In this document: one piece after another, positions 740 to 37,337 of the stretch
Position numbering within the stretch: the first letter of the stretch is position 1
Layout of the letters: every line of letters starts with the position of its first letter
Source: a virus
Taxonomy: Duplodnaviria; Caudoviricetes
Length of the DNA stretch: 38,359 nt
Reading direction: 5' to 3' (one strand)
IMG/VR virus record: IMGVR_UViG_3300033076_001014
Coordinates: 1-38,359 of that record
The notes under the pieces: model-generated
Seen by the model: only the letters and a program-made list of their open reading frames with translations
The model's database searches: none
What the model was told of the DNA's origin: nothing
Made by a program: the position numbers and the translations under genes

Positions 740-761
740 CCGCTCGCGGCAGGAGGAAAAC

Positions 762-2252: not shown

Positions 2253-2255
2253 TTT

Positions 2256-6240: not shown

Positions 6241-6246
6241 TGGTTG

Positions 6247-6438
6247 TCATCTCATTTCAGCATCCTTTGGCTCTGGCTGCTCAGAAAACCCAGACCTGGG
6301 CCGGTAGGTCAACTCAAACACGCCAGCTTTATAGGCGTCGTTATTGATTAGAACTTGGCGCCCATCTGCCGCAGCGGCGAAAACCTCAGCTGCAGCCCGG
6401 TTGAATTGCGTTGCTGTGAATACTTTTTTCTCGGTCAT
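6247..6438 (-). CDS. Phd/YefM-fold small DNA-binding (antitoxin-like) protein
   Basis: FTATQFNRAAAEVFAAAADGRQVLINN fits the beta-alpha-alpha-beta Phd N-terminal pattern. Confidence 0.55.
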   Translation of the reverse strand: MTEKKVFTATQFNRAAAEVFAAAADGRQVLINNDAYKAGVFELTYRPRSGFSEQPEPKDAEMR

Positions 6439-6467
6439 TTTGCGATTCCGTATCTATACGTAACCAA

Positions 6468-6496
6468 AATATAGCCGCAACTCAAAACTATTGCAA
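6468..6496 (-). promoter_or_regulatory. Sigma70-like promoter for the leftward insert
   Basis: Minus strand TTGCAA-17 nt-TATATT. Confidence 0.55.
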
Positions 6497-6497
6497 T

Positions 6498-6514
6498 ACG
6501 TTATAAAATAACAT
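6498..6514. promoter_or_regulatory. Second copy of the palindromic late-gene site
   Basis: ACGTTATAAAATAACAT, 15/17 identical to 262-278. Confidence 0.5.
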
Positions 6515-6582
6515 TACGCGGCGGCGGATCACGCAAGCCTACCGGGGGCTACTCGGGTTTATCGTTCATAGCGAGAGAAACT

Positions 6583-7605: not shown

Positions 7606-7615
7606 GTAAAATATT

Positions 7616-8899: not shown

Positions 8900-8907
8900 G
8901 ACTCGCC

Positions 8908-8930
8908 GGGGGCTTCGCGCCCCCTTTTTT
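8908..8930 (+). terminator. Intrinsic terminator after the coat gene
   Basis: GGGGGC-TTCGC-GCCCCC followed by T6. Confidence 0.8.
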
Positions 8931-8944
8931 CATTTGGAGAATTT

Positions 8945-9205
8945 ATGGCCATTTCGCTTTATAAAAAAGGTGTTTCGCATGTTGTTGATGGAGTGCATTG
9001 CACGGTCGTAACCGTTCAAACTGTTGACGATATGAATGCTTTGTTAGCAGGCGGCGAACACTTTCACACCGTTGAAGAGGTTTATGCTGTTGCCGCCAAG
9101 AAAGGCCGCAAAACTAAGCCTATTGAAGAGGTTGCAGAAGTAGTAGAATCGGCTGAATCTGAACCAGCGGCGGACACAGATGAAGACGAAAATCGAGCTG
9201 ATTAA
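8945..9205 (+). CDS. Small conserved protein after coat (P22-like cluster)
   Basis: RBS GGAG, LYKKG...V.GV.C pattern, acidic tail, typical position. Confidence 0.7.
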   Translation: MAISLYKKGVSHVVDGVHCTVVTVQTVDDMNALLAGGEHFHTVEEVYAVAAKKGRKTKPIEEVAEVVESAESEPAADTDEDENRAD

Positions 9206-9890
9206 TGCGGCGTTTTCTGAGCTAAGAATTTCCGGGATAACTTCTGGCCCGAGCGCGGATGATATTGAGCTGGCGCTTGAGGCGCTGGAAGATATGATGC
9301 GCCCGTTGTGCGATAAATACCCGACGCTTGGCTACAATTTTGAAGAGGTGCCTGATCCTAATACCTTATCAGGCATCCCCGCTTGGGCGAATAACGCTAT
9401 TCAGCTAAAACTTGGCGATACTATTGGATTTCGCTATGGGAAAGGAGTTGATTTAAAGCGCCTTGGCGGTGCTATGTCGCATCTGTCAACAAAGCTATCG
9501 CCTACACCGAACTATCAAAACTCCTCGCATATGCCTTCAGGGCGCGGAAATTCGTGGTGGAATACTTTCTCGGATCGTATGCCGCCTTATGAAACCGCTG
9601 ATCCGTCGTCTATTGTTTTGGCGATTGGTGATACCAGGCTTATATCGGAAGACCTCTCCAATTATTTCCGACCAGGGGAGACGCTGCTTAATGTCGTTTT
9701 AACATCAGACCCGCAGTTGGTATTTACTTCCCTGACTACATCCGGCAATACTGCTTCATTCAATGTCGCGGCAAATGGTGTTGTTGGTGTCAATTTTAAA
9801 GTTAATATCGCCGTAACCGGCACATTGGGCAGCGTATCTAAGCGAATCCTATTTTTTACTGTCGTCGATCAATTGCCGGTAGGTGAATAA
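9180..9890 (+). CDS. Head-tail adaptor (P22 gp4-like) with extra C-terminal beta domain
   Basis: MKTKIELINAAFSELRI, ALEALEDMM, LGYNF and MPSGRGN are gp4 motifs. About 85 additional C-terminal residues. Confidence 0.8.
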   Translation: MKTKIELINAAFSELRISGITSGPSADDIELALEALEDMMRPLCDKYPTLGYNFEEVPDPNTLSGIPAWANNAIQLKLGDTIGFRYGKGVDLKRLGGAMSHLSTKLSPTPNYQNSSHMPSGRGNSWWNTFSDRMPPYETADPSSIVLAIGDTRLISEDLSNYFRPGETLLNVVLTSDPQLVFTSLTTSGNTASFNVAANGVVGVNFKVNIAVTGTLGSVSKRILFFTVVDQLPVGE

Positions 9891-11293
9891 TGGGGCAGAT
9901 TCCAGTACCAATTATTCGCGGTGATCGAGTGCTAGATAATGGCGACTATGGCGATTCGATTCCAATCAATATGACCGCTGTTGCCAAAGAGATTAAAGGC
10001 GCAGCAGGGTATTTGATTTCACACGATGGCTTAGCGTTGGCTTACACCGGGCAAGGCATTGATCGCGGCTCCATTTACAACGAGCGCTGGAAAAGATCAT
10101 TCAGGGTATCTGGGCAGAAGTTGATTGAAATAACCGGCGCTGGCGTGGTTGTCATTGGAGACGTTTTGGGATCGGCGCGCTGCCGTTTTTCCTATTCATT
10201 TCAATCAATAATGATTGTTTCAAGCGGAAATGTGTACCGATACGACGGCACCACTTTAACGTTAATGACCGACCCAGATTTTGGCCGCCCGATTGACGTT
10301 TGGTGGGCCGATCAGTATTACCTATTTACCGATGGTGAGTACCTATATCATACAGATGTAAACGATGAGACAAGCATTAACCCGCTCAAATTCGCCACGT
10401 CAGAAATTAGCCCAGACCCAACGCTATCCGGTGGACGTACCCAGGATAATTTAGTAATCGCCCTTAACCGATACACATCTGAGTATTTCATCAACCAAGC
10501 AAACGATAATTTTGCCTATTCGCGGATAAATCAAAAGGCGGTTAATGTAGGAATTGTTTCAACCGGAGGATGGGTTGAGATTAAGGGCCGTGTATACCTG
10601 CTAGGCGGGGCAAAGAATGAAGCTGTTAGCGTTCATGTGCTGGGGGCTGGGCAAGCCGAGAGCATTTCTACCCGGTACATCGACGGAATTCTTGAAAGTT
10701 ATTCAGAGGCCGATTTAAGTGTTGCTTGGCTTGAATCACGTGTGTCAAAACAAGATCAGTTTTTGTATTTGCACCTTCCAAACCATGTTTTTTGTTTTTC
10801 CATTTCAATCGCTGAAAAATTAGGAAAGGACGTGGCCTGGAGCGAATTGCGCAGCCCAGGGGATACCCCGTGGCGCGGGTGTAATGGTGTTTATGATGTA
10901 AACCGAAATGCGTGGTATTACGGGGATAAGCTAGGCCCAAACATTGGGCGTCTGTCAGATACTACCGCTGGGCATTATGGTGTTGCAGTTACATCGCAAT
11001 GGGAAACCCCGCTAATCCCGATGGAAGGGCTAAGCATTAACCAGATTGAAATCAATAATGTGTCTGGGTTTGGTGCGTCAGATACGGCAATTTTTGTTAG
11101 CCGAACGCTGGATGGCATAACGCACGACACTGAATGGAGCCGCTACGTCTCAATGGATCTAAATTATTCAATGCGCTATGTCGTGCGCCGATTAGGGCGC
11201 GTTAGTAAGCAGATCGCTTTTAAATTCCGCACTCTAAACACTGAAAAAATCAATGTTAGCGGTTTAATGGTCGAACACGATGGCCCAGGTTAG
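9890..11293 (+). CDS. Tail hub / packaged DNA stabilization protein (P22 gp10-like)
   Basis: 467 aa, DYGDSIPINM, GIDRG, FRVSGQKL, ATSEISPDP and C-terminal RRLGRV...FKFR. Confidence 0.88.
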   Translation: MGQIPVPIIRGDRVLDNGDYGDSIPINMTAVAKEIKGAAGYLISHDGLALAYTGQGIDRGSIYNERWKRSFRVSGQKLIEITGAGVVVIGDVLGSARCRFSYSFQSIMIVSSGNVYRYDGTTLTLMTDPDFGRPIDVWWADQYYLFTDGEYLYHTDVNDETSINPLKFATSEISPDPTLSGGRTQDNLVIALNRYTSEYFINQANDNFAYSRINQKAVNVGIVSTGGWVEIKGRVYLLGGAKNEAVSVHVLGAGQAESISTRYIDGILESYSEADLSVAWLESRVSKQDQFLYLHLPNHVFCFSISIAEKLGKDVAWSELRSPGDTPWRGCNGVYDVNRNAWYYGDKLGPNIGRLSDTTAGHYGVAVTSQWETPLIPMEGLSINQIEINNVSGFGASDTAIFVSRTLDGITHDTEWSRYVSMDLNYSMRYVVRRLGRVSKQIAFKFRTLNTEKINVSGLMVEHDGPG

Positions 11294-11981
11294 CACCCGA
11301 TATTACATAAGCGAGACCGACGTTGCCCAATTGATTGGATTAGGTAATTTCCCTGCTCAGTTTTCTACCCTGTTCACCCGCGACTATGCAGCGTTAAAAA
11401 GGGATGTTGGAAGTACGGAAGACAGGCTAAAAGATGCCGAAACCCGTTTAAATGGAATTGATGATGAAATAGCGATAATTATTGTCAGATTAGACGATCA
11501 TGACTCATATCTGGCCGGCCTAGACTCCAGGCTTGATGCGGCAGAGGCTACGATTGTTAATCACGAATCAAGACTTGACTCTGCAGAGGCTACAATTCTT
11601 GACCATGAATTGAGAATTGATGCAGCTGAAACAAATATCACAACGCTGCAGGATGGCTTAACAGATCACATAGCCGACAGGACTACTCACGGGGCAACCG
11701 GGAACATTGTTGGGACTGATGATTATTGCACAGCCGTAATCGGTGGGACTGTGTTACTTGCAAGCGCAGTGGCTAATGCGGTTCCTGTTTCTGTTTCGAT
11801 TGCGAGTACGCCAAACGCAGCCGGGGTGGCTTATTTGCAAGCCGACGCGGCTACATGGGTTGCAATGCTCAACGAGATTAAAACCGATTTTAATACGTTT
11901 GTAACTGAGGCTAACGCAGCCATTACGCAGCTCAATGCATTGTTAGCGGCAGAACGCGCCGCCAAGCAGTTGGCTCCATGA
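11280..11981 (+). CDS. Tail needle (P22 gp26-like)
   Basis: 233 aa, heptad repeats RLDAAEATIVNHE/RLDSAEATILDHE/RIDAAETNI, position after gp10. Confidence 0.8.
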   Translation: MAQVSTRYYISETDVAQLIGLGNFPAQFSTLFTRDYAALKRDVGSTEDRLKDAETRLNGIDDEIAIIIVRLDDHDSYLAGLDSRLDAAEATIVNHESRLDSAEATILDHELRIDAAETNITTLQDGLTDHIADRTTHGATGNIVGTDDYCTAVIGGTVLLASAVANAVPVSVSIASTPNAAGVAYLQADAATWVAMLNEIKTDFNTFVTEANAAITQLNALLAAERAAKQLAP

Positions 11982-12415
11982 TTAAAAAAATCGATCACAT
12001 AGATGATGTGGAAATGGCGGCGATATTAAAGCTCGCTCTGATGGAAGATCAAAGCCCGCAGACTTGGGAACCGCCTGTTAGCGATGATTTTATGGTTGTA
12101 CAGTATGGGTATTTTAACGGAAATGAATTGTGCGGCGTTATTTTGCTACTAAGAGCAAATGGCGTGATGTGGGATGCCCACATAGCATTTAAGAGAAAGG
12201 CCTATGGAATGGCGCTGGACACAGCAATATTTGTTATGTCGCAGATGTTTAAACGAGACGATTGCCTAAAAATTAAATCAGAAATACCTAGCAATAAACC
12301 GCACGCAATAAGCCTTGCAAAGCGTTTAGGATTTAAAATGATTGGTATTAACGAGCGCTCTATAATGAAGGGCGGCAGATTGCTAGATTTAACCATTTTT
12401 ACGAGAGGTGCCTAA
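11978..12415 (+). CDS. P22 gp14-like GNAT-fold protein (DUF2824-like)
   Basis: WDAHIAF, AISLAKRLGFKMIG, synteny between gp26 and gp7. Confidence 0.75.
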   Translation: MIKKIDHIDDVEMAAILKLALMEDQSPQTWEPPVSDDFMVVQYGYFNGNELCGVILLLRANGVMWDAHIAFKRKAYGMALDTAIFVMSQMFKRDDCLKIKSEIPSNKPHAISLAKRLGFKMIGINERSIMKGGRLLDLTIFTRGA

Positions 12416-13050
12416 TGGGCGGCGGTGCTAGTTTTATAGGTAAAGGCATTCAAAGTTTTGGTGTCACAATGGGGGCTCTTGCTAGAGGTAAGGGCGAGCG
12501 ATCGGCAGAGAGAGCTGCGCAGCAAGGATCTCAGCAATCAGACGAGCAACTTAGGCAGGCCCAGGTTGAGGCGTCTGGATTATATAGCCCATATCGAGAA
12601 ATGGGTCTAAATGCTTTTGCAAAGGCAATGCAGATGGCGCAACAGCCACGCGATCAAAACCAGTTTTTGCAGAACTATTTTCAGGGCCCAGAGTATCAGA
12701 TTTTAAATGATCAGGCACAGCAAACATTGTTGCGAAACCAGTCGGCGACGGGAGGCTTTAGAAGCGGTGCTACCCAAGTTGGACTTGGACAAATTGCACC
12801 TATGCTTGGGATTCAGGCTTTACAGCGTCAAAATGCACTTGATCAACAGCAGTTTGGGAATCTTATGGGCATTGCCCAGCCTGGGTATAACGCGACCAAC
12901 GCTCAGGCGGCGCTTAGGTCAGGACTTGGTGAGCAGCTTGCGAAAGGTGCCATGTTCAGAGGTCTCAACAAAGCGCAATCTAAGCGCAATCAATACAACA
13001 ATATTGGCCAGGCTAATGAAGACCTTGGCGCCATTTGGGGGGACTTCTAA
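12415..13050 (+). CDS. DNA ejection protein (gp7-like)
   Basis: YSPYREMG, YFQGPEYQ and NQSATGGFRSGATQ are gp7-like motifs. Confidence 0.8.
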   Translation: MGGGASFIGKGIQSFGVTMGALARGKGERSAERAAQQGSQQSDEQLRQAQVEASGLYSPYREMGLNAFAKAMQMAQQPRDQNQFLQNYFQGPEYQILNDQAQQTLLRNQSATGGFRSGATQVGLGQIAPMLGIQALQRQNALDQQQFGNLMGIAQPGYNATNAQAALRSGLGEQLAKGAMFRGLNKAQSKRNQYNNIGQANEDLGAIWGDF

Positions 13051-14366
13051 TGCCTTTACGTGAAATGGTTCAGAACATGCAGGGGCTTGCTCAGTTAGCA
13101 GAAATGCGTCGGCAGGCAAAGAATCAGGAAGAGGATAGGGCTAGGCAAAAGGCCGGGATTGAGGCGCTTAATTCATACGTTGCCACAGAGCAGGCCGGGA
13201 ACCCTGATATGTCTCTGTTTTACAAAGCGGTTACTCAGGCACCAGAGGCTGCTAGCAATGTTTTAAAAGGCATCGGCATCGACAAAGAAAACAAGGCCCG
13301 CGATGCCTCTCAATTTATTCTCGAAGCGACCCCAGTTATTGACAATCGAGACGAGTTTTTGCGCCGCGTTGATAATCGAATTGCGATGCTACAGCAATCA
13401 GGTCGTGATGCGTCCGATACTCAAGCTTTAAAGCAGCAGTATTTAAGCGGTGATATTGCCGGGGCAAAAAAGAATTTGCAGGGCGTTGCTGCGGCTCTAG
13501 TCGGAAGCGGATACCTACAACCAAAGGCCTACGATTATGCATTTGGCCCTGCTCCCGGAAGTATGGACGAGTACCAAAAGGCTACTATTGGGCTGAAAAA
13601 TAAAGAGCTTGCGCTTGATCAGCAGAGGCTTGGCATTGAGGCTCAGCGCGTAAGTTCTGCCGCTGCGACTGGATTGGCGGGAACGTCAAACCAAAAAGAT
13701 TGGGCCACCTATCAGAATTTGTTAAAAACTGATCCAGAATCAGCAAAAACATTTGGCCGTGCAGCTGGTTTTCTTTCTAAAGAAGGTCAGCAACTTACAG
13801 GATTCAGCGAAAAGCAAATTGCCACTGCATCGGATGAATATAACTCTGCTTCTCAGGCGGCGGGAAGATATGCAACTTTAGCCGAGCAGATTAGGGCTAA
13901 AAGCATTGGAGGAGGATTGCCGTCAACTTGGGCTGAAACACTAAAAGATATAAGCGGAAATCAAGACGAAATAACTCAGCTTAAAAAGTCTGTAATGGAG
14001 GTCGTCAATAGCGAGGCTATCAAGGCATTGCCACCTGGGCCAGCCACCGATAGAGATATAGCTTTGGTTAGAGAGCCTTTCCCGACTGCCAGGGCAAATG
14101 GCGAATATATTGCGAATTGGCTCGGAGCCGTTGCTAGATTAAATGAAAAGCGCGCCCAATATGCAGAGCACAAGGCAAATTTTATCGCCCAAAATGGTGG
14201 GCAGCGTAATGCACAGGGCGAAACTGTTTTGAGTAGCTGGAAAAAGCTTCAGTCAGAGCAGGCACCCGCTCAAGATAACAAGAAGCAAGGAGGCGTTTTG
14301 CATGTTGATGCCAATGGCAATAAGGCTATTGTTTACCCAGATGGCAGCTATGAGGAAGTTCAATAA
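13050..14366 (+). CDS. DNA ejection protein (gp20-like)
   Basis: Helical Q/A-rich protein with LPPGPATDRDI motif. Likely start is ATG 13050 overlapping the gp7 TAA. Confidence 0.75.
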   Translation: MPLREMVQNMQGLAQLAEMRRQAKNQEEDRARQKAGIEALNSYVATEQAGNPDMSLFYKAVTQAPEAASNVLKGIGIDKENKARDASQFILEATPVIDNRDEFLRRVDNRIAMLQQSGRDASDTQALKQQYLSGDIAGAKKNLQGVAAALVGSGYLQPKAYDYAFGPAPGSMDEYQKATIGLKNKELALDQQRLGIEAQRVSSAAATGLAGTSNQKDWATYQNLLKTDPESAKTFGRAAGFLSKEGQQLTGFSEKQIATASDEYNSASQAAGRYATLAEQIRAKSIGGGLPSTWAETLKDISGNQDEITQLKKSVMEVVNSEAIKALPPGPATDRDIALVREPFPTARANGEYIANWLGAVARLNEKRAQYAEHKANFIAQNGGQRNAQGETVLSSWKKLQSEQAPAQDNKKQGGVLHVDANGNKAIVYPDGSYEEVQ

Positions 14367-16312
14367 TGGCATTTGATCTATCCACTGCCAAGCCGATAAA
14401 AGGCGGGTTTGATTTATCGACCGCAAAGCCTATTGGCCAGCAGCAAGAGCCTTCCGCCCTGTCACTTGAGGCGCCAGGAACGCAAATGCAGGAGCAGGCT
14501 CCAGCTCAGCCGGAATATGGGATTGGCGACCGCTTAAAAGGCGCTGCAGAGGCCGCCGCTACCATTGGCACTGGAATGACTACCGGACTTGTAGGTGCAG
14601 GTCTTGGAACTATACGAGGCCTTGGAGAATCGGTTATGTCAGGGCAATTTGGCACCCAGCAAGGAGCTGATTTGGTTGAGCGCCGTGCTCAGCAAGGGAT
14701 GGAATCGCTCACATACTCGCCAAGCACGCAGGCCGGTCAACAATACGCCGCAGAGGTTGGGCAAGCATTACAGCCATTGGCTAGCATTGCGCCGGTTTTT
14801 CCGGGGGCGTCGGGTGCTGCTGCCGGTTCTATTGGCGCGGCCACTCAGGCGGCAGAAGCCGCTGCAAGAGTTGGAGCGCAGCGGTTAGGACAAGCCGGAG
14901 CGTCGGCAGCTAGATCAGTTGGCTCGTTGCCAGGCCGCGCACTTGAGGCGGTCGGACTTCGAGAGGCAGACGTTGCTGATCAATTCGCAGGCCCTGCTGG
15001 CGGTTCCGCAGCCGCCAACCTGTCAGGAATGCGTGAAAACGTGGCCGGTCAATTGCCTGTTCCAGTGAACCTAACGCTTGGCGCCCGCACTAGAAACCCA
15101 AACCAATTGTCGTTTGAAAAAGAGCAGATGAAAACCGCTCTTGGTCAGCCATTGCGCGACCGCGCAGAGCAGAACATTACCGAGATTAACCAGAATTTTG
15201 ACGCCCTGGTTGATATGGTTGGAAGCCAGGAAACAGCAATAGGGCCTAGCGCTATAGGCCGACGAGTTGTTGATACATTGGCGCAAGGCTACGACATAGC
15301 CAAAAAGAAAACAAACGAGGCCTACAAGCGAGCAGAAAATTCACAAGAGGCTTTGCTTCCTGTTGATATTTCGCAGCCTGTAACGATTGGGCAAGGAGAG
15401 CAGGCGCTAACCACCTCATTAATTGACAACCTTAATTCATACCCTATTGGCCTGCCGACTACCAAGCTGGTTACTCATGCGCGAGAGTATGCAAAGCGCT
15501 TAGGTATAGCTGCGGAAGATGACGCTGGGAATTTGGTTCCGTTGCAAACTAACGTCAGAAATTTGGAGGCGTTTAGAAAGGAAATAGTGGCCGCCACCGG
15601 TTATGAACCAACAGACGTTCGCCAGGCCACCATAATTAAAAAACTAATTGATGCCCAGGTTGAGCCGTTGGCTGGCCCGCTTTATAAAAAAGCGCGAGAG
15701 CTTAGAACGCTGCAAGCCAAGAAATACGAAAACCGCGCCATTGTCGCTGACCTAATCAATAACAAGCGTGGCACAGATGACAGAAAGGTTGCGATTGATC
15801 GAGTTTTTAACGAAACGATTTTAAACGGTTCGCCGGATGAGATTGGTTTTCTGCGCGGGGTTATCCTTACTTCTGGCAAGGGCGGGCGCCAAGCGTGGAA
15901 AGAGTTGCAAGGTGCAACCATTAAGCACCTACAGGATGAGGCGACAAAAGGAATGAATACAACCTCAACCGGTGAGGCTGTTATAAGTACGGCAAAGCTA
16001 AACAATGCTGTTAATGCGCTGGATAAGAACGGGCGCCTAGATTTGGTTTTGGGCCGAAAAAATGCCGCCATTGTTCGCGACCTTAACGACGTTGTGAAAT
16101 ACGTAAACACTGTGCCGCCAGGAACTCTTATAAACAGCTCAGGAACAGCCGCGACATTGATGGCCGCCATTAGCGAGGCTGGGCTAACCGGAGCTGTTAC
16201 AGGGCTTCCCGTGCCGGTATTGAGCGCCCTCAAAATCATGCGCAAGCAAGTGCAAGACAAGAAAATTAAAAACAAAATAGACAGAGCTTTAAACAGTAGG
16301 CCGAACCCATGA
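14366..16312 (+). CDS. DNA ejection protein (gp16-like)
   Basis: Third ejection position, A/G/Q-rich, N-terminal FDLSTAKPI repeated twice, INSSGTA near the C-terminus. Confidence 0.75.
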   Translation: MAFDLSTAKPIKGGFDLSTAKPIGQQQEPSALSLEAPGTQMQEQAPAQPEYGIGDRLKGAAEAAATIGTGMTTGLVGAGLGTIRGLGESVMSGQFGTQQGADLVERRAQQGMESLTYSPSTQAGQQYAAEVGQALQPLASIAPVFPGASGAAAGSIGAATQAAEAAARVGAQRLGQAGASAARSVGSLPGRALEAVGLREADVADQFAGPAGGSAAANLSGMRENVAGQLPVPVNLTLGARTRNPNQLSFEKEQMKTALGQPLRDRAEQNITEINQNFDALVDMVGSQETAIGPSAIGRRVVDTLAQGYDIAKKKTNEAYKRAENSQEALLPVDISQPVTIGQGEQALTTSLIDNLNSYPIGLPTTKLVTHAREYAKRLGIAAEDDAGNLVPLQTNVRNLEAFRKEIVAATGYEPTDVRQATIIKKLIDAQVEPLAGPLYKKARELRTLQAKKYENRAIVADLINNKRGTDDRKVAIDRVFNETILNGSPDEIGFLRGVILTSGKGGRQAWKELQGATIKHLQDEATKGMNTTSTGEAVISTAKLNNAVNALDKNGRLDLVLGRKNAAIVRDLNDVVKYVNTVPPGTLINSSGTAATLMAAISEAGLTGAVTGLPVPVLSALKIMRKQVQDKKIKNKIDRALNSRPNP

Positions 16313-18495
16313 GCTACACAGCAGAACAACCTATTCAGTACACGCCAGACCCGTCAAAGCTCGGCGCTTTAGCCGGTGGCAAAGTATGGTTTGGAGTTCC
16401 AAACGGAAACCCTGCATCAGTACCTGGAGACAGGATTCAAGTTTATCTGGCGCGCCAAGGCCTTTCAGATTTAGCCATTGCGCAGCCAATTGATATTGGC
16501 CCAGGTGGCGTGTGGTACTATCAAGGATCACCAGCGCAAATAAAAGTACTAGTTCCGTATTCTGTGCAGGTTATGAACAGCCTAGGAGTACAGAAGTATT
16601 ATGCGCCTTTATCTGGAGACGAAATATTAGCTTTTCAAAATATGCAGTCAGACATTGATAATATTACTGCATCATTGAATGAACGAATTTTAATAGTTGA
16701 TAATTTCGCGGCGCTTGCATCTGCGGCAGTGCAAATTGGTGATCAAGTTTCGACTCTTGGCCATACCGTTTCCGGTGTTGGTGGTGCTGTATATTCAGTT
16801 GTTTCTCCTACGGGACTTATATCTGACGGCGGTTATATTCTAGTTGATGGGCCAATAGCATTTGTGGCCCAAGGAATTGAGAACTTTCCTATTACATTAT
16901 TTGGCGCGCAGCCTGGCGGACTGGTTGACGCTATTTCGGCTATAAATTTAGCGAAAGCAAAAACAGCTTATCCATTTGTCCCGGCGGGTACGTTTTTGGT
17001 CTCTACGCTTGATAATTGTCACGGTTTGTGGGGTGACGGATCAATTAAATATAACGGGGTGACCTATCCGCTGCCAAAATATCCACGAGAGGATAATTTT
17101 GTTATTCCAGACTTCACTCGCTATGCGTGCGCTGGTACGACTTGGCACCCCCTAATTCTTGTTGGCGACAGTATCACAGAGGGCTCGAACGCGATTGATT
17201 GGAAAGAGGACAACTATGCGTCGATAATTAAAAAAGCTTGGCAGAACAAGTACGGTAATAATAATTTAGGTTTTGCGCCGTTTGATATGGTTGTATACGA
17301 CAATATACCGTCGTCCACTAAATACCCGCATTATGTAACTCGATCAGGGTTTAGCATTTACTATGCGTTCAAAGACGATTATTTTGGCGGGTGTGCCATC
17401 CGTTCAAACACCATCGGAGAGTGGGTGGAGACCACATTTACCGGCAAAGACACCGTTATTGTTTATGAGCAAGACTCATCAAACGGTTCAATTCTTGAGG
17501 TATTCCTGGATGGCGTTAGCGTCGGCACAATCGACACCAAAGCCGCTTCAACAAATTTCCTTTCCGGCCCAGTGGCAAAGGCTAGCTTTTCAATTCCGAT
17601 TACTGCGGCGAATTACGGGCTCCACACAATTAGGCTGGTAAATACCCAGGCGAAAACCGCAACGCTGTGCGGAGCTGTATATCTTGAAGACTCCGCAAAT
17701 ATCGCCCCACTGGTGTTCAATTGTGGGCGCTCGTCAATATCCTTATCTGATATTCCGAATAATATTCTGGATATTTATGCTGGATCGACTGGTCTTAGCG
17801 TTCTTGCTCTTGGCGTTAATGACCAGCTGAACTCCAAGCCGCTCGCCACGTTCAAATCCAAAATCGAATATTTTTTAAGCCGAGTAACTACGGTAGAAGG
17901 CAAGTGCATTTTGCTTGACTTTATGTTTAGCTTGCCTGAAAGCAATGCATATAAGACCGCCCTGAGAGATAGGGCATGGGTATACGGGTATCCGTTCGCC
18001 GACATCGGCAAGCAGTGGCTGCAAGGCACAACGGAAAACCAATTTCTATCTTATCTTGATGCCGATGGTATTCACCCGACAACCCCAGGGCAGGCCTACA
18101 TAGCGTGTGAAGCGTTGCGCATGATGGCGATGCCATACACCAAGGGGACTGCAGCTGCCGGAACTTTCGCGATCCCTATCAAGCAGCCAGCCCTAGTGGC
18201 GGACTGGGCAGAATTTAATGCCAGCTATGACACTGCTAAATATGCTCGCGGCCCCGGAGGAGTGGTTACACTATCAGGTACGATTAAAACAACTACTGGA
18301 AAAGCTGCGTACTCGACAATTTTTACGATTTCAGAAGCTTCTGCACGGCCTGAGAAAACTTTGATATTTAATTGCAATATGAACCACCTCTCGACAGAGA
18401 TTGAGGTGCACCCGACAGGAGAAGTTAAAGTTGGTAACACCGCTATTCCTGCTGGAGGTTTCCTATCTCTATCAGGGATTAGCTATATGACCTAA
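16309..18495 (+). CDS. Tailspike with P22-like head-binding domain and SGNH esterase domain
   Basis: N-terminal GKVWFG..NP...QVY...AQPIDIGPGG...YSVQV head-binding pattern. SGNH blocks GDSITEG, NCGRSS, LGVND and DGIHP. Confidence 0.85.
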   Translation: MSYTAEQPIQYTPDPSKLGALAGGKVWFGVPNGNPASVPGDRIQVYLARQGLSDLAIAQPIDIGPGGVWYYQGSPAQIKVLVPYSVQVMNSLGVQKYYAPLSGDEILAFQNMQSDIDNITASLNERILIVDNFAALASAAVQIGDQVSTLGHTVSGVGGAVYSVVSPTGLISDGGYILVDGPIAFVAQGIENFPITLFGAQPGGLVDAISAINLAKAKTAYPFVPAGTFLVSTLDNCHGLWGDGSIKYNGVTYPLPKYPREDNFVIPDFTRYACAGTTWHPLILVGDSITEGSNAIDWKEDNYASIIKKAWQNKYGNNNLGFAPFDMVVYDNIPSSTKYPHYVTRSGFSIYYAFKDDYFGGCAIRSNTIGEWVETTFTGKDTVIVYEQDSSNGSILEVFLDGVSVGTIDTKAASTNFLSGPVAKASFSIPITAANYGLHTIRLVNTQAKTATLCGAVYLEDSANIAPLVFNCGRSSISLSDIPNNILDIYAGSTGLSVLALGVNDQLNSKPLATFKSKIEYFLSRVTTVEGKCILLDFMFSLPESNAYKTALRDRAWVYGYPFADIGKQWLQGTTENQFLSYLDADGIHPTTPGQAYIACEALRMMAMPYTKGTAAAGTFAIPIKQPALVADWAEFNASYDTAKYARGPGGVVTLSGTIKTTTGKAAYSTIFTISEASARPEKTLIFNCNMNHLSTEIEVHPTGEVKVGNTAIPAGGFLSLSGISYMT

Positions 18496-18915: not shown

Positions 18916-18992
18916 TTGTTTCTGGACTTCACGACAAAAGCGATTGAAAGGATGATTAATGCCAGCGTTGACAGTGCTATAACGTCGTTCAT
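18912..18992 (-). CDS. Small single-TM peptide (26 aa, MNDVIALSTLALIILSIAFVVKSRNK)
   Basis: Manual translation. ATGA overlaps with both neighbours. Confidence 0.6.
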   Translation of the reverse strand: MNDVIALSTLALIILSIAFVVKSRNK

Positions 18993-19465
18993 TTTTTATT
19001 ATTCCCGTAGTGATCGGCTAAAAGTTCAAGATTGCGGCCCTTCATAACAACAGCTTTTGCCTTCTGCCGGTCTTTAATGCCGCGATTCTTTATGGCCTTT
19101 TCGGCAGCTGTAACTGTCTTGTGCAGTTCGCCTAGCTGCTCCCCGTGATAAAACGCCTTGAACTTACCGCTTTGCGGATCTTGCCTAATGCTGATCTGTT
19201 TTCCGAACGATGAGCGCAGGTTAGAAACAGTAACCTCCAAAAAATTGAGCTCTGCTGATGACATTGAGCTGATATAGGTTGGCGCCATCGAGTGTCCGGC
19301 TGGCGGCAGAACTTCAATCTCCCGGCCTCGTTTTAAGAACTCCTCAACCTGGAGCGCTATCTGCTCCCGTTCCTCATCTCGCGCCTTGTGATCAGCTATC
19401 GCGTGGTTTGTCTCCTGGCCGCGTCGGACTATTAAGACATTAAATTCATTTTGGCTTAAGCTCAT
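18989..19465 (-). CDS. Protein with SutA-like RNA-polymerase-binding motif
   Basis: KARDEEREQIALQVEEFLKRGREIEVLP resembles the SutA core helix motif (EEFLxRGGxI/V). RBS CCTGGGGAGG. Confidence 0.55.
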   Translation of the reverse strand: MSLSQNEFNVLIVRRGQETNHAIADHKARDEEREQIALQVEEFLKRGREIEVLPPAGHSMAPTYISSMSSAELNFLEVTVSNLRSSFGKQISIRQDPQSGKFKAFYHGEQLGELHKTVTAAEKAIKNRGIKDRQKAKAVVMKGRNLELLADHYGNNKK

Positions 19466-21344: not shown

Positions 21345-21357
21345 AACTTTCCCCAGT

Positions 21358-21639: not shown

Positions 21640-21659
21640 CCCAGGTTTTTGGCATGGCT

Positions 21660-21730
21660 TAAGTATGCGCGCAACGCAAAAAAAAGCAAGAGTTTTTTAT
21701 TGACTTTTTTGCGCGGCAGGCATAATCTGA
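21660..21730. promoter_or_regulatory. Divergent PL/PR-like promoter pair
   Basis: Plus strand TTGACT(21700)-17 nt-TAATCT. Minus strand TTGCTT-16 nt-CATACT. Both halves share TTG..TTTTTTGCG. Confidence 0.65.
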
Positions 21731-21734
21731 CCTT

Positions 21735-21885
21735 GTTGTGAATGCGCAGGCTGATGCGCTAACTCGCATGGCACGCCCCAGATCCGTAACTGGGGGCCGT
21801 AGCAGACAATCACGGTAACCCTCCATGGAGAACTGCATGCCGGGATCAGCTCCGGCCACAACACAGCCCCTTCGCAAGAGGGGGC
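21735..21885 (+). ncRNA. Structured RNA unit 1 with kissing loops (resembles my recollection of the Proteo-phage-1 motif)
   Basis: GTTGTG/CACAAC closing stem, GCGCA-GGCTGA-TGCGC and GCCGG-GATCAGCT-CCGGC hairpins with complementary loops. Starts at the predicted PR start site. Confidence 0.65.
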
Positions 21886-21961
21886 AACCTAAGTCACCTT
21901 GCAAAGATGCGCTCGCCCATGGGGCGCTCGTCGTGGGACGGTATGCAGGGTGACTCAGGTT
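21886..21961 (+). ncRNA. Intervening long stem RNA domain
   Basis: AACCTAAGTCACCTTGCA pairs with TGCAGGGTGACTCAGGTT. Confidence 0.5.
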
Positions 21962-22148
21962 GTGAATGCGCATTAGCGCAAAGTGTGGGCTTGGAGTGGG
22001 TGACGTTTGGCTGCTATTGGACAAGTCAGGTAAACAAGAGGTTAAGCAGTGCACCCATATAAATTGCGTGAAATTACCACTGTCCCAGTTTCTGGTGCTG
22101 ACTAACGCGCAAATATTCCTTCACAACACTGCCCCTGGCAACGGGGGC
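21959..22148 (+). ncRNA. Structured RNA unit 2 (paralogous ends to unit 1)
   Basis: Same first 14 nt GTTGTGAATGCGCA, closed by TTCACAAC (22120-22127), followed by GCCCCTG-GCAA-CGGGGGC. Confidence 0.5.
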
Positions 22149-22169
22149 TTTCAATCAACCGGAGGCACA

Positions 22170-22643
22170 ATGCAAGACTACCTAGAAAACGCATATAGGA
22201 AGGCGCAAGAAATGGAGCTTGAGAATGTTCGTTTTCATTCAGAAATGCAGCGATTTGAATTCATTAACAAAGCTATTTCTAATGCGCTTTTAATATACGC
22301 AGGTTGCCATGCAGTTTTGGCGTGTTCAGCTGTTTCAATCAACCAACCATCAACCAACCATCAACCATCAACCAACCATCAACCAACCATCAACCAACCA
22401 TCAACCAACCATCAAGCAAATTGGGGAACAATCATGCGAATGACAAGACAAGAAGCCGAACGCCGCCGAGCTGAATATGAGCGCCGTTACAATCAACTTA
22501 TTAGCTTAGCTAAATTCATGGCCGAGCAAAGCATTGAGATAATTTCCGACAGTATTAGTTCGTCAATATCAAGCTCAAGTTCTTGCAGCGACAGCTACAG
22601 CTCGTCTAGTTCGTTTGACAGTTCAAGCTGCTCAAGCGATTAA
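22170..22643 (+). CDS. Hypothetical protein(s) spanning the 11-bp repeat, with an internal start at 22434
   Basis: GGAGG before ATG 22170 and TTGGGGAA before ATG 22434 in the same frame. Ser-rich tail. Confidence 0.5.
   Translation: MQDYLENAYRKAQEMELENVRFHSEMQRFEFINKAISNALLIYAGCHAVLACSAVSINQPSTNHQPSTNHQPTINQPSTNHQANWGTIMRMTRQEAERRRAEYERRYNQLISLAKFMAEQSIEIISDSISSSISSSSSCSDSYSSSSSFDSSSCSSD
22338..22420 (+). repeat. Tandem repeat ATCAACCAACC
   Basis: Six perfect 11-mers, one 7-nt unit (22360-22366) and one degenerate final unit. Confidence 0.95.
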
Positions 22644-23930: not shown

Positions 23931-24698
23931 ATGTCAATGATTTTGATGGTCAAGGCCATGACCTTAAAGCTAGGCAACCCTTTAAGAAAATTAGTGTTAA
24001 TCAAGCTGTGCGACCAGGCGAACGACCGTGGCGAGTGCTGGCCTAGTCATTCCTCAATTGCCGATGCCTGTGAGATAAGCAAGCGAAGTGTGATAACACA
24101 CATTGAAGCGCTTGAGCAGGCAGGAATCCTTAAGATCAAACATAGGAAAGTTGACAACGCTAAGACCTCAAACCTTTACACAATATGCCTTGATAACGTT
24201 GATCTAGGTAGTGCAACTGCTGCACCAGGTAGTGCAGGAGATTCACTAGGGGTAGTGCAGGAGATTTACCAGGGTAGTGCAGGAGATTCACTAGGGGTAG
24301 TGCAGGAGATTTACCAGGGTAGTGCAGGAGCTGCACATAAATCAGTAAATGAATCAGTCAATAAAGATATACATGGTAAAAAATCAAAATCAAAAACCGA
24401 CCTAACATTTAGCCAGTGGGCAATCCAATGTAAGGAAAACGGGGAAACCTTACTTCCAGCCGATAGCGGGGTATTTGCCTACGCTAGAACTATTGGGCTT
24501 CCAGAAGAGTACCTGCGCTTAGGCTGGGAGACCTTCAAGCGTGATCACCTGATAAGCGACAAGAAGCAAAAGGACTGGCGGTTGACGTTCCTAGTTTACG
24601 TTCGCAAGGGTTATCTCAAGCTTTGGTACATTGATCAACAAGATGTTTATCAGCTAACGCAGGCTGGCAAGCAGGCCATGATGGAGCTGGCTGCATGA
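23931..24698 (+). CDS. Replication initiator (lambda O-like, N-terminal HTH)
   Basis: RKLVLIKLCDQANDRGECWPS..IA..CEISKRSV, internal iterons, upstream of DnaB. Confidence 0.88.
   Translation: MSMILMVKAMTLKLGNPLRKLVLIKLCDQANDRGECWPSHSSIADACEISKRSVITHIEALEQAGILKIKHRKVDNAKTSNLYTICLDNVDLGSATAAPGSAGDSLGVVQEIYQGSAGDSLGVVQEIYQGSAGAAHKSVNESVNKDIHGKKSKSKTDLTFSQWAIQCKENGETLLPADSGVFAYARTIGLPEEYLRLGWETFKRDHLISDKKQKDWRLTFLVYVRKGYLKLWYIDQQDVYQLTQAGKQAMMELAA
24207..24400. repeat. Iterons and AT-rich tract (replication origin)
   Basis: Six GGTAGTGCA cores at 24207, 24228, 24251, 24273, 24296 and 24318 (21-23 bp spacing), then an A-rich stretch. Confidence 0.85.
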
Positions 24699-29689: not shown

Positions 29690-29702
29690 ACTGGGGAAGT
29701 TT

Positions 29703-31931: not shown

Positions 31932-31968
31932 AGTGTTTCCCCAGTGTTAGCCCCTTGCGGGGCGTTTT

Positions 31969-32427: not shown

Positions 32428-32505
32428 AATATTATCCCCAGTTCAGCGCCACCCAGTGTGCCGCCGTTGAGGTAACTATAGCAAAGGTGTCATGACACTG
32501 CAAGC
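32421..32505 (-). promoter_or_regulatory. Duplicated promoter-operator-leader, copy A
   Basis: TTGCAG-17 nt-TATAGT with perfect palindrome GTGTCATGACAC (32487-32498). Similar to 37175-37261. Confidence 0.8.
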
Positions 32506-32538: not shown

Positions 32539-32563
32539 AAAAAAAAGCCCCTCGAAAGGGGCT
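32539..32563 (-). terminator. Intrinsic terminator of the minus-strand sRNA
   Basis: Minus strand AGCCCCT-TTCG-AGGGGCT followed by a T-run. Confidence 0.85.
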
Positions 32564-32696
32564 GTTTTCCCGCGCTGCTGGCGGCATGTAGCTCTTGACT
32601 GGGGAGAACAAGAGGTCTAACATGATTCTGCTGCTTGAGATTAACGGCCTCAAGCAACTTGATCGGATTGTGATTACGACACGAAACCGACCCACG
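32539..32696 (-). ncRNA. Candidate ~160-nt sRNA with anti-RBS loop UUCUCCCCAGU
   Basis: Bounded by a sigma70 promoter and a terminator. Three internal hairpins, one with stem CTCTTG/CAAGAG and a loop complementary to ACTGGGGAGAA. Confidence 0.65.
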
Positions 32697-32702
32697 GCAT
32701 AA

Positions 32703-32731
32703 ATTCTACATGCCACAAGTCATTCTCGCAA
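32703..32731 (-). promoter_or_regulatory. Sigma70-like promoter of the candidate sRNA
   Basis: Minus strand TTGCGA-17 nt-TAGAAT. Confidence 0.7.
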
Positions 32732-32809
32732 GCTCACATCCACTTTCAGGTCATCGCATCTATGCGTCTGCGCTCACGCGTGCTCGATTTGGTGCGACCG
32801 GCAACCCTG

Positions 32810-33040
32810 GCAAAATGGTGACGATCAACACCCGGGTGGGAGAACAGGGCTTAAAAGCCTGGAGCGACCCCAGATCGGCGGGGCAAACCCCGTGAACGCT
32901 CCTTAGTTACACAGTTTGTTTGAGGTAACCGCCCAAAGTGACGCCATGGCTCCGCCGGGAATGTCGGGTAATGCTCCAACCTGATTATTATTGGGTTAGG
33001 GTAAACATTGCCCAATCGTTCAACCATTCACCACCGGGAA
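32810..33040. ncRNA. Candidate structured non-coding element
   Basis: Many nested inverted repeats and two long-range complementarities. No convincing ORF. Strand unresolved. Confidence 0.4.
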
Positions 33041-33087
33041 TTAATAGTTCTAATTAAATCTATCTAACTTATATAATGGGGAAATTT

Positions 33088-33306
33088 ATGCTTAATGAAG
33101 AAATGCAAAAATTAGTAATCGCTGCACTTACCGTTATTATAATTTGCGCAACGGTTGCGACATGCTCAAGCGCTCAGAACATATCTGACAACAAAGCGGT
33201 TGTAAGCATGGTTGAAAAAGGCGCAGATCCAATGATTGCCGCATGTTCTATAGGACGCGGAACCGAACTAAAATGTTCATTGGCAATATCTAACCAATCA
33301 AAGTAA
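33088..33306 (+). CDS. Small membrane-anchored protein
   Basis: TGGGGAAA RBS before ATG 33088, N-terminal TM helix, MVEKGADPMIAACS motif. Confidence 0.7.
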   Translation: MLNEEMQKLVIAALTVIIICATVATCSSAQNISDNKAVVSMVEKGADPMIAACSIGRGTELKCSLAISNQSK

Positions 33307-33330
33307 TTAACTAACCAACTGGGGAAATTT

Positions 33331-33714
33331 ATGAGTCACACACCTGAACCATGGTTCATCGCAGAAGAGCCGCTAATTTTACTAAATGAAATTTGCGGAA
33401 ATGATGAAAACGGTGATCCTTTTATAATTGCATCAAAAAACTATAATTATCCCGATCTTTCAAATGCCAACGCTCGCCGCATAGTCGCCTGTGTTAATGC
33501 TTGCCGTGGACTATCCACAAAAGAACTTGAGGAAAACGGCCTAGTGTCAGCTGTTGGGCATGAGCTTCTTAATCTTGATGCCCAGCTAGCCACCGTCACC
33601 GCCCAGCGGGATGAGCTGTTAAAGGCGCTTAAAGCTACATTAGGCCCGGATTATGAGCATGCGTATAACTTGGCAATGGACGCGATAGAGAAGTGCGAGG
33701 TGCAAAATGGTTGA
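33331..33714 (+). CDS. Conserved phage hypothetical protein
   Basis: MSHTPEPW, ANARRIVACVNAC and QRDELL motifs. RBS ACTGGGGA. Confidence 0.8.
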   Translation: MSHTPEPWFIAEEPLILLNEICGNDENGDPFIIASKNYNYPDLSNANARRIVACVNACRGLSTKELEENGLVSAVGHELLNLDAQLATVTAQRDELLKALKATLGPDYEHAYNLAMDAIEKCEVQNG

Positions 33715-34456
33715 TTTAGATGATTTGAAGGCTAAGGCTCTCGCGGCTACCGATTGTAATCTTGATACAGCTCAAATAGTTAGAAACAATCCAGGAAATG
33801 AGTATGAATGCCCTGTTTGCGGTGGTGAAGGGTATGTATCTGGCGTGGTCGATTACTGCAATATTGATGGCCTTGCCATTGGTGTCATGTTTTACGGTAT
33901 TGGGAATGAGTTTGGCGCTGATGAGGAGTATTTTCGTGCTGCAAGTCCGGCTGCAGTTCTTGAGCTAATCAAGCGCCTGGAGACCGCCGAGTCCGAGCGA
34001 GACCGCCTGCGCGCAGAGCTTGGCGCAAAGGCACGGATGTCGATAGAGCTTGGTATATTCGAGCGGATGCTAGACCCTGAGTGGGACGGAGAATTTAGCG
34101 CTATCGATTCTGAGTATATGCACCATGTGCACGAGCGGTTGTATTCCGTGCTGAAAGAAAACTGCAATCTAAAAGCAGAGCTTGAGTCATTGCGCGCCAA
34201 GAATGCATCCCTAAAGGCGCAGATTGATTATCCAGAAAGCGTACTACTGCAAGAGCCTTATTGCTGGGTATGGCAGCACGCGAACGGCAGTCCAGGTGTT
34301 GGAATGTTTAGTTCCGAGCAAGCCGCGAAGGATGCCTGGGATATTATAGCGCCCAACGGCAAGGCTATTCCGCTCTACGCCAGCCCGGTACCGGCTCAGC
34401 AACCGGCAGATGTAACGCCAAACACATCAAAACCAACTGGGGAGCAAAACCAATGA
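33707..34456 (+). CDS. Ead/Ea22-like protein
   Basis: LKAKALAAT...AASPAAVLELIKRLE, coiled coil, C-terminal IPLYASP. Confidence 0.75.
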   Translation: MVDLDDLKAKALAATDCNLDTAQIVRNNPGNEYECPVCGGEGYVSGVVDYCNIDGLAIGVMFYGIGNEFGADEEYFRAASPAAVLELIKRLETAESERDRLRAELGAKARMSIELGIFERMLDPEWDGEFSAIDSEYMHHVHERLYSVLKENCNLKAELESLRAKNASLKAQIDYPESVLLQEPYCWVWQHANGSPGVGMFSSEQAAKDAWDIIAPNGKAIPLYASPVPAQQPADVTPNTSKPTGEQNQ

Positions 34457-35094
34457 ACATTAACGAAATGACAACTCAGCATATCATTAGCCAAATGCTG
34501 GTAATACAGGACTCACTGAACAAGCATATTCACCCGGAATGGGACTCGCAGGGCTGGGACTGGGACTTAGCCATCATGGCCGAGTGCGGCGAGATTTTGG
34601 AGCGCTGGCAGGGCTGGAAGTGGTGGAAGAAGGCGCCGGATATTTCCGAGCTTAGCGAGTACGAGCGGTTTCAATTAGCGCTTGAATTTATTGACGTGCT
34701 GCATTTTTGCCTTAGCCGTCATATTGATAAGTATGGCTATTTTTTTGACAATGACGTTAATAATAATTTGTCGCACTTCTACCGATATCCTGTAGCAAAC
34801 GCCATCAAGGCGCCTGGAGTTCTGCCAATAATGGGCGCCCTTTACACGCATTTCGGATACGACGAGCGCGACGTTTACCGGCTATATTTGGCCAAAAACG
34901 CACTAAACCAGTTCAGGCAGGAAATGGGCAGCAAGGAAGGAACATATAACAAAATATGGGGCTGCAATGAGGACAACCATTATTTGATGTGGGCATTTAA
35001 TTCATTGAAAAACGAGACTTTAAATTCAAGTCAATTAATCGAATCAATAAAGGAATCGCTGTTAAAAGACTATCAAAATTTGGGTCTATTATGA
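34453..35094 (+). CDS. Dimeric (all-alpha) dUTPase
   Basis: Q..LN, AECGE, WKWWK, EFIDVLHF, YLAKNALNQFRQ, Y.K.W..EDN motifs. Confidence 0.88.
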   Translation: MNINEMTTQHIISQMLVIQDSLNKHIHPEWDSQGWDWDLAIMAECGEILERWQGWKWWKKAPDISELSEYERFQLALEFIDVLHFCLSRHIDKYGYFFDNDVNNNLSHFYRYPVANAIKAPGVLPIMGALYTHFGYDERDVYRLYLAKNALNQFRQEMGSKEGTYNKIWGCNEDNHYLMWAFNSLKNETLNSSQLIESIKESLLKDYQNLGLL

Positions 35095-35709: not shown

Positions 35710-35861
35710 GGCACGCTCCTCTTTGGCTTCCTGAGCCGAATTTCCGCCTTTTCTAGTTCTTCCATGCGCTCAGGCAAAACCCAGCAAAGGCGCTGCTTAA
35801 GGCCCTGCGCTTTTAGCCGGTTGTGCCTTTCGGCTCTAATCACGTTTTTGTCTTTTGGCAT
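35694..35861 (-). CDS. Small basic protein, DUF3018/MazE-like ribbon DNA-binding candidate (55 aa)
   Basis: Manual translation [31 protein letters not shown].... ATG overlaps the upstream TAA. Confidence 0.55.
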   Translation of the reverse strand: MPKDKNVIRAERHNRLKAQGLKQRLCWVLPERMEELEKAEIRLRKPKRSVPCLDS

Positions 35862-36589
35862 TAATTCACCCATTTCCCGGCTGTTAATATTTGACGCAGT
35901 TTTTCTTTTTGTGCGGCCCCGGCAGCGGCCCTGGCAGCGTCCCAGGCAGCGTCCCAGGCAGCGTCCCAGGCAGCGTCCCAGGCAGCGTCCCCGGCAGCGG
36001 CCCTGGCAGCGTCCCAGGCAGCGTCCCAGGCAGCGTCCCCGGCAGCGGCCCTGGCAGCGTCCCTGGCAGCGTCCCTGGCAGCGTCCCAGGCAGCGTCCCA
36101 GGCAGCGTCCCCGGCAGCGGCCCCGGCAGCGTCCCCGGCAGCGTCCCTGGCAGCGTCCCAGGCAGCGTCCCAGGCAGCGTCCCCGGCAGCGGCCCAGGCA
36201 GCGGCCCTGGCAGCGTCCCAGGCAGCGTCCCAGGCAGCGTCCCTGGCAGCGGCCCTGGCAGCGTCCCAGGCAGCGGCAAGCTCTTCATCTGTCGCCAATC
36301 CGTTAGCATGATTTCGAGCAACCACCAGGGCATTTAAGCTGCGCTCGTCGGTCATTAGGTGCTTTATTTGCTCTGCGCACCAAACAGCATATAGCCGCCA
36401 CAAATTAGCGTACTCCGGCAGGCATTGTAGGCACCAAAAGGTGTCGTTTAATCCGTTACTATCCAGAACGTCTGTTAATGGAAATTCAATATCATCAGCA
36501 GATGTTTTGCCTTTGCTCGTTAGCAGTTTTTGCCATCCTTCGGCGCATGGTGACTTTTCGCGTATTTTGTTCAGTGTAATTAAGATCAT
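35861..36589 (-). CDS. Phage protein with AA[WRG][DA] tetrapeptide repeats
   Basis: ACTGGGGA RBS before ATG 36589 ([15 protein letters not shown]). N-terminal domain RLYAVWCA..., then 30 repeats. Confidence 0.8.
35913..36274. repeat. 12-bp tandem repeat, 30 units, GGCAGCG[T/G]CCC[A/T/C]
   Basis: Read directly. Only two positions vary. Confidence 0.97.
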
Positions 36590-36651
36590 GGTTTTTCCCC
36601 AGTGTTTGCCCATTGCGGGTCGGTGGTTGTTAGGACTATGTGCTTGATGGT

Positions 36652-36858: not shown

Positions 36859-36929
36859 AATCTTATCCCCAGTTCCGCGCCGCCCATTGCGGCGTCATTT
36901 AATTAAAGCCCCTCGCGGGGCGGTGGTTG

Positions 36930-37181: not shown

Positions 37182-37261
37182 AATATTATTCCCCAGTTTT
37201 AGCCGCACCCAATGTGCCGCTGTTGAAGTAACTATAATATAGGTGTCATGACACCGCAAGC
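37175..37261 (-). promoter_or_regulatory. Duplicated promoter-operator-leader, copy B
   Basis: TTGCGG-17 nt-TATAGT with perfect palindrome GGTGTCATGACACC (37242-37255). Confidence 0.8.
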
Positions 37262-37337
37262 GCTTTATCAATATTTTTTGCAAATCGGCAAAACGTGGTA
37301 GAATGCGGCTTATTACATTTGTCAATAGGGCTAGACC

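Follow-up and report, generated by a model that had tools for sequence, protein, structure and literature searches.

C-rich loop seeds directed against G-rich Shine-Dalgarno (SD) sequences are established in small RNAs such as RNAIII, RsaA, RoxS and CJnc190 (PMC12205990). A second precedent is the start-associated sequence (SAS) of the Cluster K mycobacteriophages, an asymmetric motif in the ribosome-binding site (RBS) position of non-structural genes; four phages have, besides these, one lone copy in the reverse orientation (Pope et al., PMC3203893). SAS-like motifs are also present in Microbacterium cluster EF phages (PMC7302621). Small RNAs with convergent promoters are represented by Sar of P22 and by OOP and aQ of lambda (PMC12197685), and the P4 CI RNA and the P1/P7 c4 RNA (Rfam RF01695, listed in PMC2864571) are phage RNAs whose loops pair at separate sites (PMC4825925). 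T4-like phages carry PeSL cassettes, in which a unit of promoter, stem-loop and SD recurs ahead of variable small genes (PMC2839356), and the face-to-face pR and pL promoters of coliphage 186 form a switch in which pR interferes with pL (PMC7708051). Searches of the openly accessible literature found no RNA with which a phage targets a tag common to its own RBSs, and none is described in the parts covered of a review of phage sRNAs from 2025, which exclude its table of 38 uncharacterised sRNAs (PMC12197685).

The locus described here is well supported, by sequence comparison, as a real and conserved small-RNA gene with an accessible anti-RBS loop, set within a two-promoter arrangement. The window analysed is the entire 38,359-bp record of an uncultured phage, a P22-like podovirus by its ORF matches. 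Among 58 scanned ORFs, terminase, portal, coat, tail and ejection proteins occupy 302-18495, and recombination genes, an O-like initiator, DnaB, NinB/NinG, a MarR-like protein and a dUTPase were also matched. The same scan gave no match to an integrase or a CI-like repressor, and analysis of the window showed no sign of a latent state or lysogeny and no tRNA. Cultured relatives are distant, with terminases at 45% or less, and their listed hosts are Gammaproteobacteria; a GTDB scan returned two loci at 44%, a NinG search recovered distant relatives only, and a search found no relatives of the 152-aa gene that neighbours the locus. Contigs of close relatives come from soil, freshwater, river and wastewater, and at least 15 terminase sequences group in a single 90% cluster. 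The most informative homologue, L025, has a terminase at 94% to that of the window and was compared over 7.7 kb; cultured phages matched the window or the L025 region over stretches of terminator size only.

On the minus strand, a predicted sigma70 promoter, TTGCGA-17-TAGAAT (32703-32731), is followed by an intrinsic terminator (32539-32563) whose stem spans 32563-32546 and whose U-run extends to 32539, and a 5' end placed from the -10 would give a small RNA of ~157 nt (32539-32695, minus strand). Consensus promoter matches in this region are at chance level (15 against 13.8 expected), so the promoter call rests on conservation. A sequence-only reading of this DNA had described three hairpins between promoter and terminator, and folding bears this out: the 166-nt minus strand forms three hairpins and the terminator with a z-score of -3.68, and none of 200 shuffles folds as well. 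Hairpin 1 (32661-32692) keeps its stem around a variable loop, with eight of 11 pairs invariant in A3, pairs being counted on a thin, register-shifted alignment of three rows. Hairpin 2 (32630-32658) contains a conserved U-G pair that favours the minus strand, shows compensatory changes, and folds better on the minus strand (z -4.9 against -3.4 on the plus strand), as does its L025 counterpart (-2.4 against -0.8); minus-strand folding is favoured for hairpins 1 and 2 in both genomes. Hairpin 3 (32585-32624) exposes an 11-nt loop, UUCUCCCCAGU (32598-32608, read from 32608), at an opening cost of 0.62 kcal/mol, and this loop is the candidate seed. There is also a fourth, small hairpin (32584-32570). 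The terminator, originally read as UUCG-capped, retains its stem and U-run, but the UUCG loop is closed by a U-A pair and is not kept in contigs X2, X4 and X9 or in L082 and L083; in relatives the stem is conserved and the loop variable. Rfam gave nothing at gathering threshold anywhere in the window, the weak matches being terminators. An inverted repeat around the minus-strand -10 (32696-32714) is preserved in X12 through a double change (32700/32710) and in L025 as a longer hairpin; it could be part of a plus-strand leader or of a longer minus-strand RNA.

The RNA has homologues in L082, L083, L025 and Logan contigs, and was compared in contigs X2, X4, X9, X8, X12 and X15 and in L082, L083 and L025 (X3 stops before the loop), which amount to about three related lineages and are not independent samples. 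No RNA run figured among the sequencing runs listed as containing this sequence. Changes within the RNA in X2, X4 and X9 are limited to the terminator loop and 32578, and the differences in X4 and X9 (the latter probably a DNA run) are those of L082/L083. The more divergent contigs, X8, X12 and X15, carry 17-31 differences; no -35 change is listed, the -10 is TAAAAT, and the spacer is altered yet of the same 17-bp length. Their changes in hairpin 1 fall nearly all in the loop, hairpin 2 has two double changes in X15 (32635/32653 and 32638/32650), and in hairpin 3 the double changes 32594/32612 and 32589/32620 preserve pairing in all three contigs. L025 carries the same anatomy, namely TTGCGG-17-TAAAAT (1347-1319), three hairpins and a terminator. 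The promoter that the sequence-only reading proposed is present with its -35 and 17-bp spacing kept in relatives, and its discrete, structured minus-strand RNA gene is well supported by the comparison. Counted from listed differences, with one difference per contig left out in X2, X8, X12 and X15 and with indel placement inflating loop variability, none of the 11 positions of the hairpin-3 loop varies, and the three remaining loops together vary at 15 of 22 (Fisher p 0.0002). The p-value becomes 0.002 when three letters shared with a plus-strand -35 are removed, and 0.065 when the loop is set against the whole-RNA rate. The exact hairpin pattern had no matches in IMG/VR, and three degenerate patterns returned 21, 1 and 8 stretches, among which the only true homologues were L025 and the L027 record. 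A covariance model built from three sequences, whose automatic structure lacked hairpin 3, recovered only the window, L082, L083 and L025 from 83 sources.

The loop is matched by an RBS tag, ACTGGGGA, which occurs 11 times in the window against 0.61 copies expected, a count that none of 100 shuffles attains. The sequence-only reading had placed the motif before at least nine start codons, and exactly nine copies precede an ATG by 5-9 nt; the remaining two are a copy in a coding region (20481) and the hairpin itself. On a list of 60 starts, which we divided into classes ourselves with two genes left unclassed, the tag marks nine of 38 non-structural starts and none of 20 virion or lysis starts (Fisher p 0.02); for the looser CUGGGG the corresponding counts are 13 and none (p 0.002). 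The tag is the top start-associated 8-mer in the window and in L083. G001-G003, L026 and three cultured relatives have no start motif of comparable prominence; the incomplete genomes G001-G004 (terminase 62-70%) contain zero or one tag and share no common start motif, as is also true of the three cultured relatives. The standard anti-SD of the 16S tail can pair with the GGGG core of the tag only, the ACU and the last A being left out, and the hairpin-3 loop can pair with all eight tag letters.

Five minus-strand tags lie before a 107-aa gene starting at 21344 (21350-21357), an 82-aa gene at 31931 (31938-31945; kept in L082/L083), the 152-aa gene at 32427 (32435-32442; lost in L082/L083), a 68-aa gene at 36858 (36866-36873) and an 83-aa gene at 37181 (37190-37197; kept in L083). 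A sixth minus-strand tag (36596-36603; lost in L083) precedes a 242-aa gene starting at 36589, and three plus-strand tags precede a MarR-like winged-helix gene at 29703 (29690-29697; lost in L083), a 127-aa gene at 33331 (33318-33325) and the dUTPase-family gene at 34453, where the match is of 9 nt (34436-34444; kept in L083). The 242-aa gene (35861-36589) contains a long 12-bp tandem repeat, and its L083 orthologue is 137 aa. The window holds several duplicated cassettes (D4, D7, D13 and D14), and five of the nine tags are found in related hairpin-leader cassettes, so that copying may explain much of the tag enrichment; the other four lie in unrelated A-rich flanks. One such unit, the early promoter/palindrome/leader cassette D7 (32442-32505, minus strand), has a second copy at 37198-37261 with 84% identity. 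The duplicated early leftward promoters each have in their spacer a perfect 12-bp palindrome (32487-32498 and 37243-37254) that is likely to be an operator; L025, L027 and L063 have different palindromes in its place.

Loop and tag are exactly complementary, and ~0.002 such matches would be expected among 219 loop positions in 2,715 non-coding bases. By predicted pairing, including the opening of the target, the tagged starts rank 1-3, 6-10 and 18 of 60, and the dUTPase start, for which 9-nt complementarity was confirmed, ranks first. The match is not private to tagged genes, since the start of an ejection protein, a virion component (13050), ranks fourth of 60, and duplex scans of the genome with the whole hairpin or whole RNA gave long, imperfect, chance-like matches and no ranking. 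Relatives qualify the picture. The loop had been expected to persist wherever the motif does, and this is so in L083, where it is identical to that of the window, and not in L025, where one start among the few early genes in its 7.7 kb carries ACTGGGGA but the anti-ACUGGGGA loop is missing. The seed is invariant in two close lineages and absent in L025. Of six orthologous tags in L083, three are intact and three altered, one altered form being still able to pair with the loop's 5' half, and the covariation of loop and RBS motif that might have been anticipated was seen in no lineage. The interpretation given in the sequence-only reading is supported in part, and a regulon role is a plausible hypothesis that both L025 and L083 weaken.

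A feature overlooked in the sequence-only reading provides the chief rival explanation. Over hairpin 3 lies a predicted convergent sigma70 promoter on the plus strand, TTGACT-17-TAACAT (32595-32623), with a counterpart at the aligned place in L025 (1210-1238, TTGACT-17-TAAAAT) whose spacer is unrelated. It is predicted to transcribe a long non-coding leader (32630-33087, plus strand), without a conserved ORF, of the rightward operon 33088-35094, and the first 65 nt of this leader are antisense to the 5' 65 nt of the small RNA, which form hairpins 1 and 2. Because this conserved promoter overlies hairpin 3, the RNA is probably also cis-antisense to the start of the leader. Of the eight loop letters, three (the loop's AGU) fall in the -35 hexamer of the plus-strand promoter and five in its spacer, so constraint at the DNA level may account for the invariance of the loop. 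The leader is homologous to L025 up to ~33050 and is replaced past 32881 in L082/L083. Within it, a structured module (32748-32800, plus strand) adopts the same fold in the window and L025 (~1389-1444), its internal segments being invariant and its outer stem fully changed yet still paired; it has no Rfam match and is a candidate antitermination or protein-binding RNA. Matching in X8, X12 and X15 ends just past it. A second conserved non-coding block (window 32881-33050, L025 1520-1690, L027 1-116) is replaced in L082/L083. An HK022 put element, which depends on a 5' AGACG/CGUCU duplex and two neighbouring stems (PMC9378689), was considered for the leader and rejected, there being a CGUCU in an invariant block and, by eye, no upstream AGACG partner.

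We regard the reading of this RNA as a trans-acting anti-RBS small RNA, probably with an additional cis-antisense activity, as the best available explanation, tentatively held at a probability of roughly 45%. Host polymerase would produce the RNA early on from the host-type promoter, and hairpin 3, as its predicted fold and compensatory changes suggest, would present the seed. Some 8-9 bp would then form in trans over the SD of ACUGGGGA-tagged mRNAs and block ribosome loading, by analogy with the C-rich-loop sRNAs, such that accumulation of the RNA would damp the tagged early accessory proteins as a group, presumably alongside protein repression at the palindrome of the two early promoters. 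The trans and cis activities are compatible, and the anti-RBS loop, which may be a recent addition, looks like an address peculiar to this lineage that was set on an older antisense scaffold. If the reading is right, the phage has made a translational regulon out of marked RBSs and a single RNA that reads the mark. The role of SAS-type motifs and their lone reverse copies, a question open since 2011, would then have a concrete and testable answer, the SAS idea would extend to a P22-like lineage, and synthetic work would gain a small repressor made of RNA only.

By this analogy the RNA would work like a C-rich-loop anti-SD sRNA on targets that resemble SAS motifs. With the former it shares an accessible C/U-rich seed exposed in a loop, several targets (nine exact 8-nt sites over an SD) and an intrinsic terminator (PMC12205990), and it differs in being phage-encoded, in its predicted action on the phage's own genes through an extended tag, in having no Rfam match and in overlapping a convergent promoter. 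The tag resembles SAS in its asymmetry, RBS position, association with non-structural genes and ATG starts, letters unable to pair with 16S rRNA, and one opposite copy away from gene starts (32598-32605), although the window has a further stray copy in coding sequence. It departs from SAS in its length of 8 nt, its unrelated sequence, which is not the 13-bp Cluster K consensus, and the likely Gammaproteobacterial host; the parts of the two SAS papers covered here do not describe the reverse copy as an RNA loop and leave its function open (PMC3203893, PMC7302621).

A less probable explanation, and on balance a somewhat unlikely one, is that the RNA serves mainly as a cis-antisense regulator of the convergent promoter and leader, in the manner of Sar, OOP and aQ or of P4 CI, through pairing and transcriptional interference, with the RBS match secondary or incidental. 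Both promoters keep their hexamers and 17-bp spacing in the window and L025 while their spacers have diverged, start sites ~65 bp apart produce a perfect overlap across hairpins 1 and 2, the leader has a conserved plus-strand fold of its own, and it is the convergent anatomy, not the anti-RBS loop, that is common to both lineages. Furthermore, hairpin 3 of L025, which has an unrelated top and shares little with the window beyond the two hexamers of the plus-strand promoter, pairs with a leader site at 1564-1584 (two of 200 shuffles as good), and the homologous site in the window can still pair with this hairpin at 11 of 12 nt. The window's own match between hairpin 3 and the leader (32838-32849) is however at chance level, being equalled by 39 of 200 shuffles, and a second C-rich stretch (32836-32850) forms no stable loop on folding. 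The plus-strand -10 of the window matches at only four of six positions, the overlap includes no RBS or coding sequence, and both the exact 8-nt match, with five letters beyond the -35 (~1 in 1000), and its invariance would go unexplained. The likeness to Sar, OOP and aQ lies in a small RNA with a convergent promoter in a P22-like genome (PMC12197685); unlike those RNAs, the predicted overlap is with a non-coding leader and takes in no gene start, RBS or conserved ORF, and an extra hairpin outside the overlap bears a candidate trans seed.

Coliphage 186 pR and pL are spaced ~62 bp apart. The present pair resembles them as two convergent promoters with start sites ~65 bp apart, and differs in that the leftward product is a terminated non-coding RNA and not the CI mRNA. 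It is possible, but we think unlikely, that the locus is a protein-free switch in which face-to-face promoters yield either the rightward leader or the small RNA, the 5' hairpins silence the leader, and hairpin 3 is a swappable address, directed here to the private RBS tag of 9-13 early genes and in L025 to the leader site. If so, the RNA would act as a CI-like repressor or as an early shut-off timer at the level of translation. Possible control without protein, by a phage RNA whose loops pair at separate sites, and the leader match of the L025 hairpin 3 also recall P4 CI and c4, although P4 CI is processed from a transcript that contains its targets (PMC4825925) and the RNA here is served by a separate promoter on the other strand. 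Membership of the c4/P4 CI group was rejected: the window has no c4 match at gathering threshold, nor does the locus at E up to 5 and 3, and the candidate sites sit on transcripts other than the RNA.

Still less likely is the proposition that the tag is a lineage-specific RBS spread by recombination of PeSL-like cassettes, with hairpin 3 a promoter-overlapping stem-loop or a relic and the minus-strand unit doing no more than insulate the early promoter. The duplicated cassettes, the hairpin leaders common to five of nine tags, the ACYGGRGA-like drift of tags in L083 and L025, and the frequent position of PeSL stem-loops between -35 and -10 (PMC2839356) are in its favour. The unrelated flanks of four tags are not, nor is a hairpin copy upstream of the plus-strand start site with no start codon at SD distance, and the conserved minus-strand promoter, wobble asymmetry and compensated stems would be left without explanation. 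The likeness to PeSL extends to the stem-loop between -35 and -10 and otherwise concerns the leftward leaders only; PeSL is the counterpart of the target leaders and not of the antisense RNA, and the main text of its description, as covered here, contains no antisense term (PMC2839356). The hairpin-3 unit was rejected as a PeSL cassette, its ATG lying inside the -10 and its ORF not being conserved. By the tests run, the locus belongs to none of c4, put, PeSL or type I toxin-antitoxin.

It is very unlikely that the tag is the site of a phage or host translational repressor protein with the hairpin as DNA operator or decoy, or that it is the RBS of a type I toxin-antitoxin peptide: Pope et al. 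left open whether SAS has RNA or protein partners (PMC3203893), and an ATG with an SD-like sequence stands at the aligned place in the window and L025, but the sense copy is upstream of the predicted plus-strand start and so would not be transcribed, the window's ATG lies within the -10 hexamer, the peptides of the two genomes are unlike each other and not hydrophobic, and type I toxin-antitoxin was rejected for want of a conserved small hydrophobic peptide opposite the RNA. The related alternative that the site is simply the RBS of the plus-strand 26-codon ORF at 32622 fails, as codon 9 of this ORF reads as a stop in X8 and X12 and its frame is shifted in X15.

Several further features of the genome were recorded. 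Between the divergent early operons, at the place where a CI gene would sit, is a 530-bp structured non-coding region (21640-22170), in which 21881-21960 gives folding z-scores of -3.9/-5.8 and no Rfam match. An imperfect 11-bp tandem repeat (22327-22428) lies inside or before the 157-aa/69-aa genes, and five 19-bp direct repeats within the O-like initiator gene (24228-24336) are lambda-type origin iterons. A 158-aa protein (18989-19465) has a weak match, below the Pfam cut-off, to the SutA RNAP-binding domain. No obvious Q homologue was present among the scanned ORFs, and a conserved extended -10-type promoter (37277-37304; L025 ~1735-1751) stands directly before the lysis/late cassette. In L083 the lysis genes are followed by a terminase module unlike that of the window (~8899-13476), which marks that record as mosaic or chimeric.
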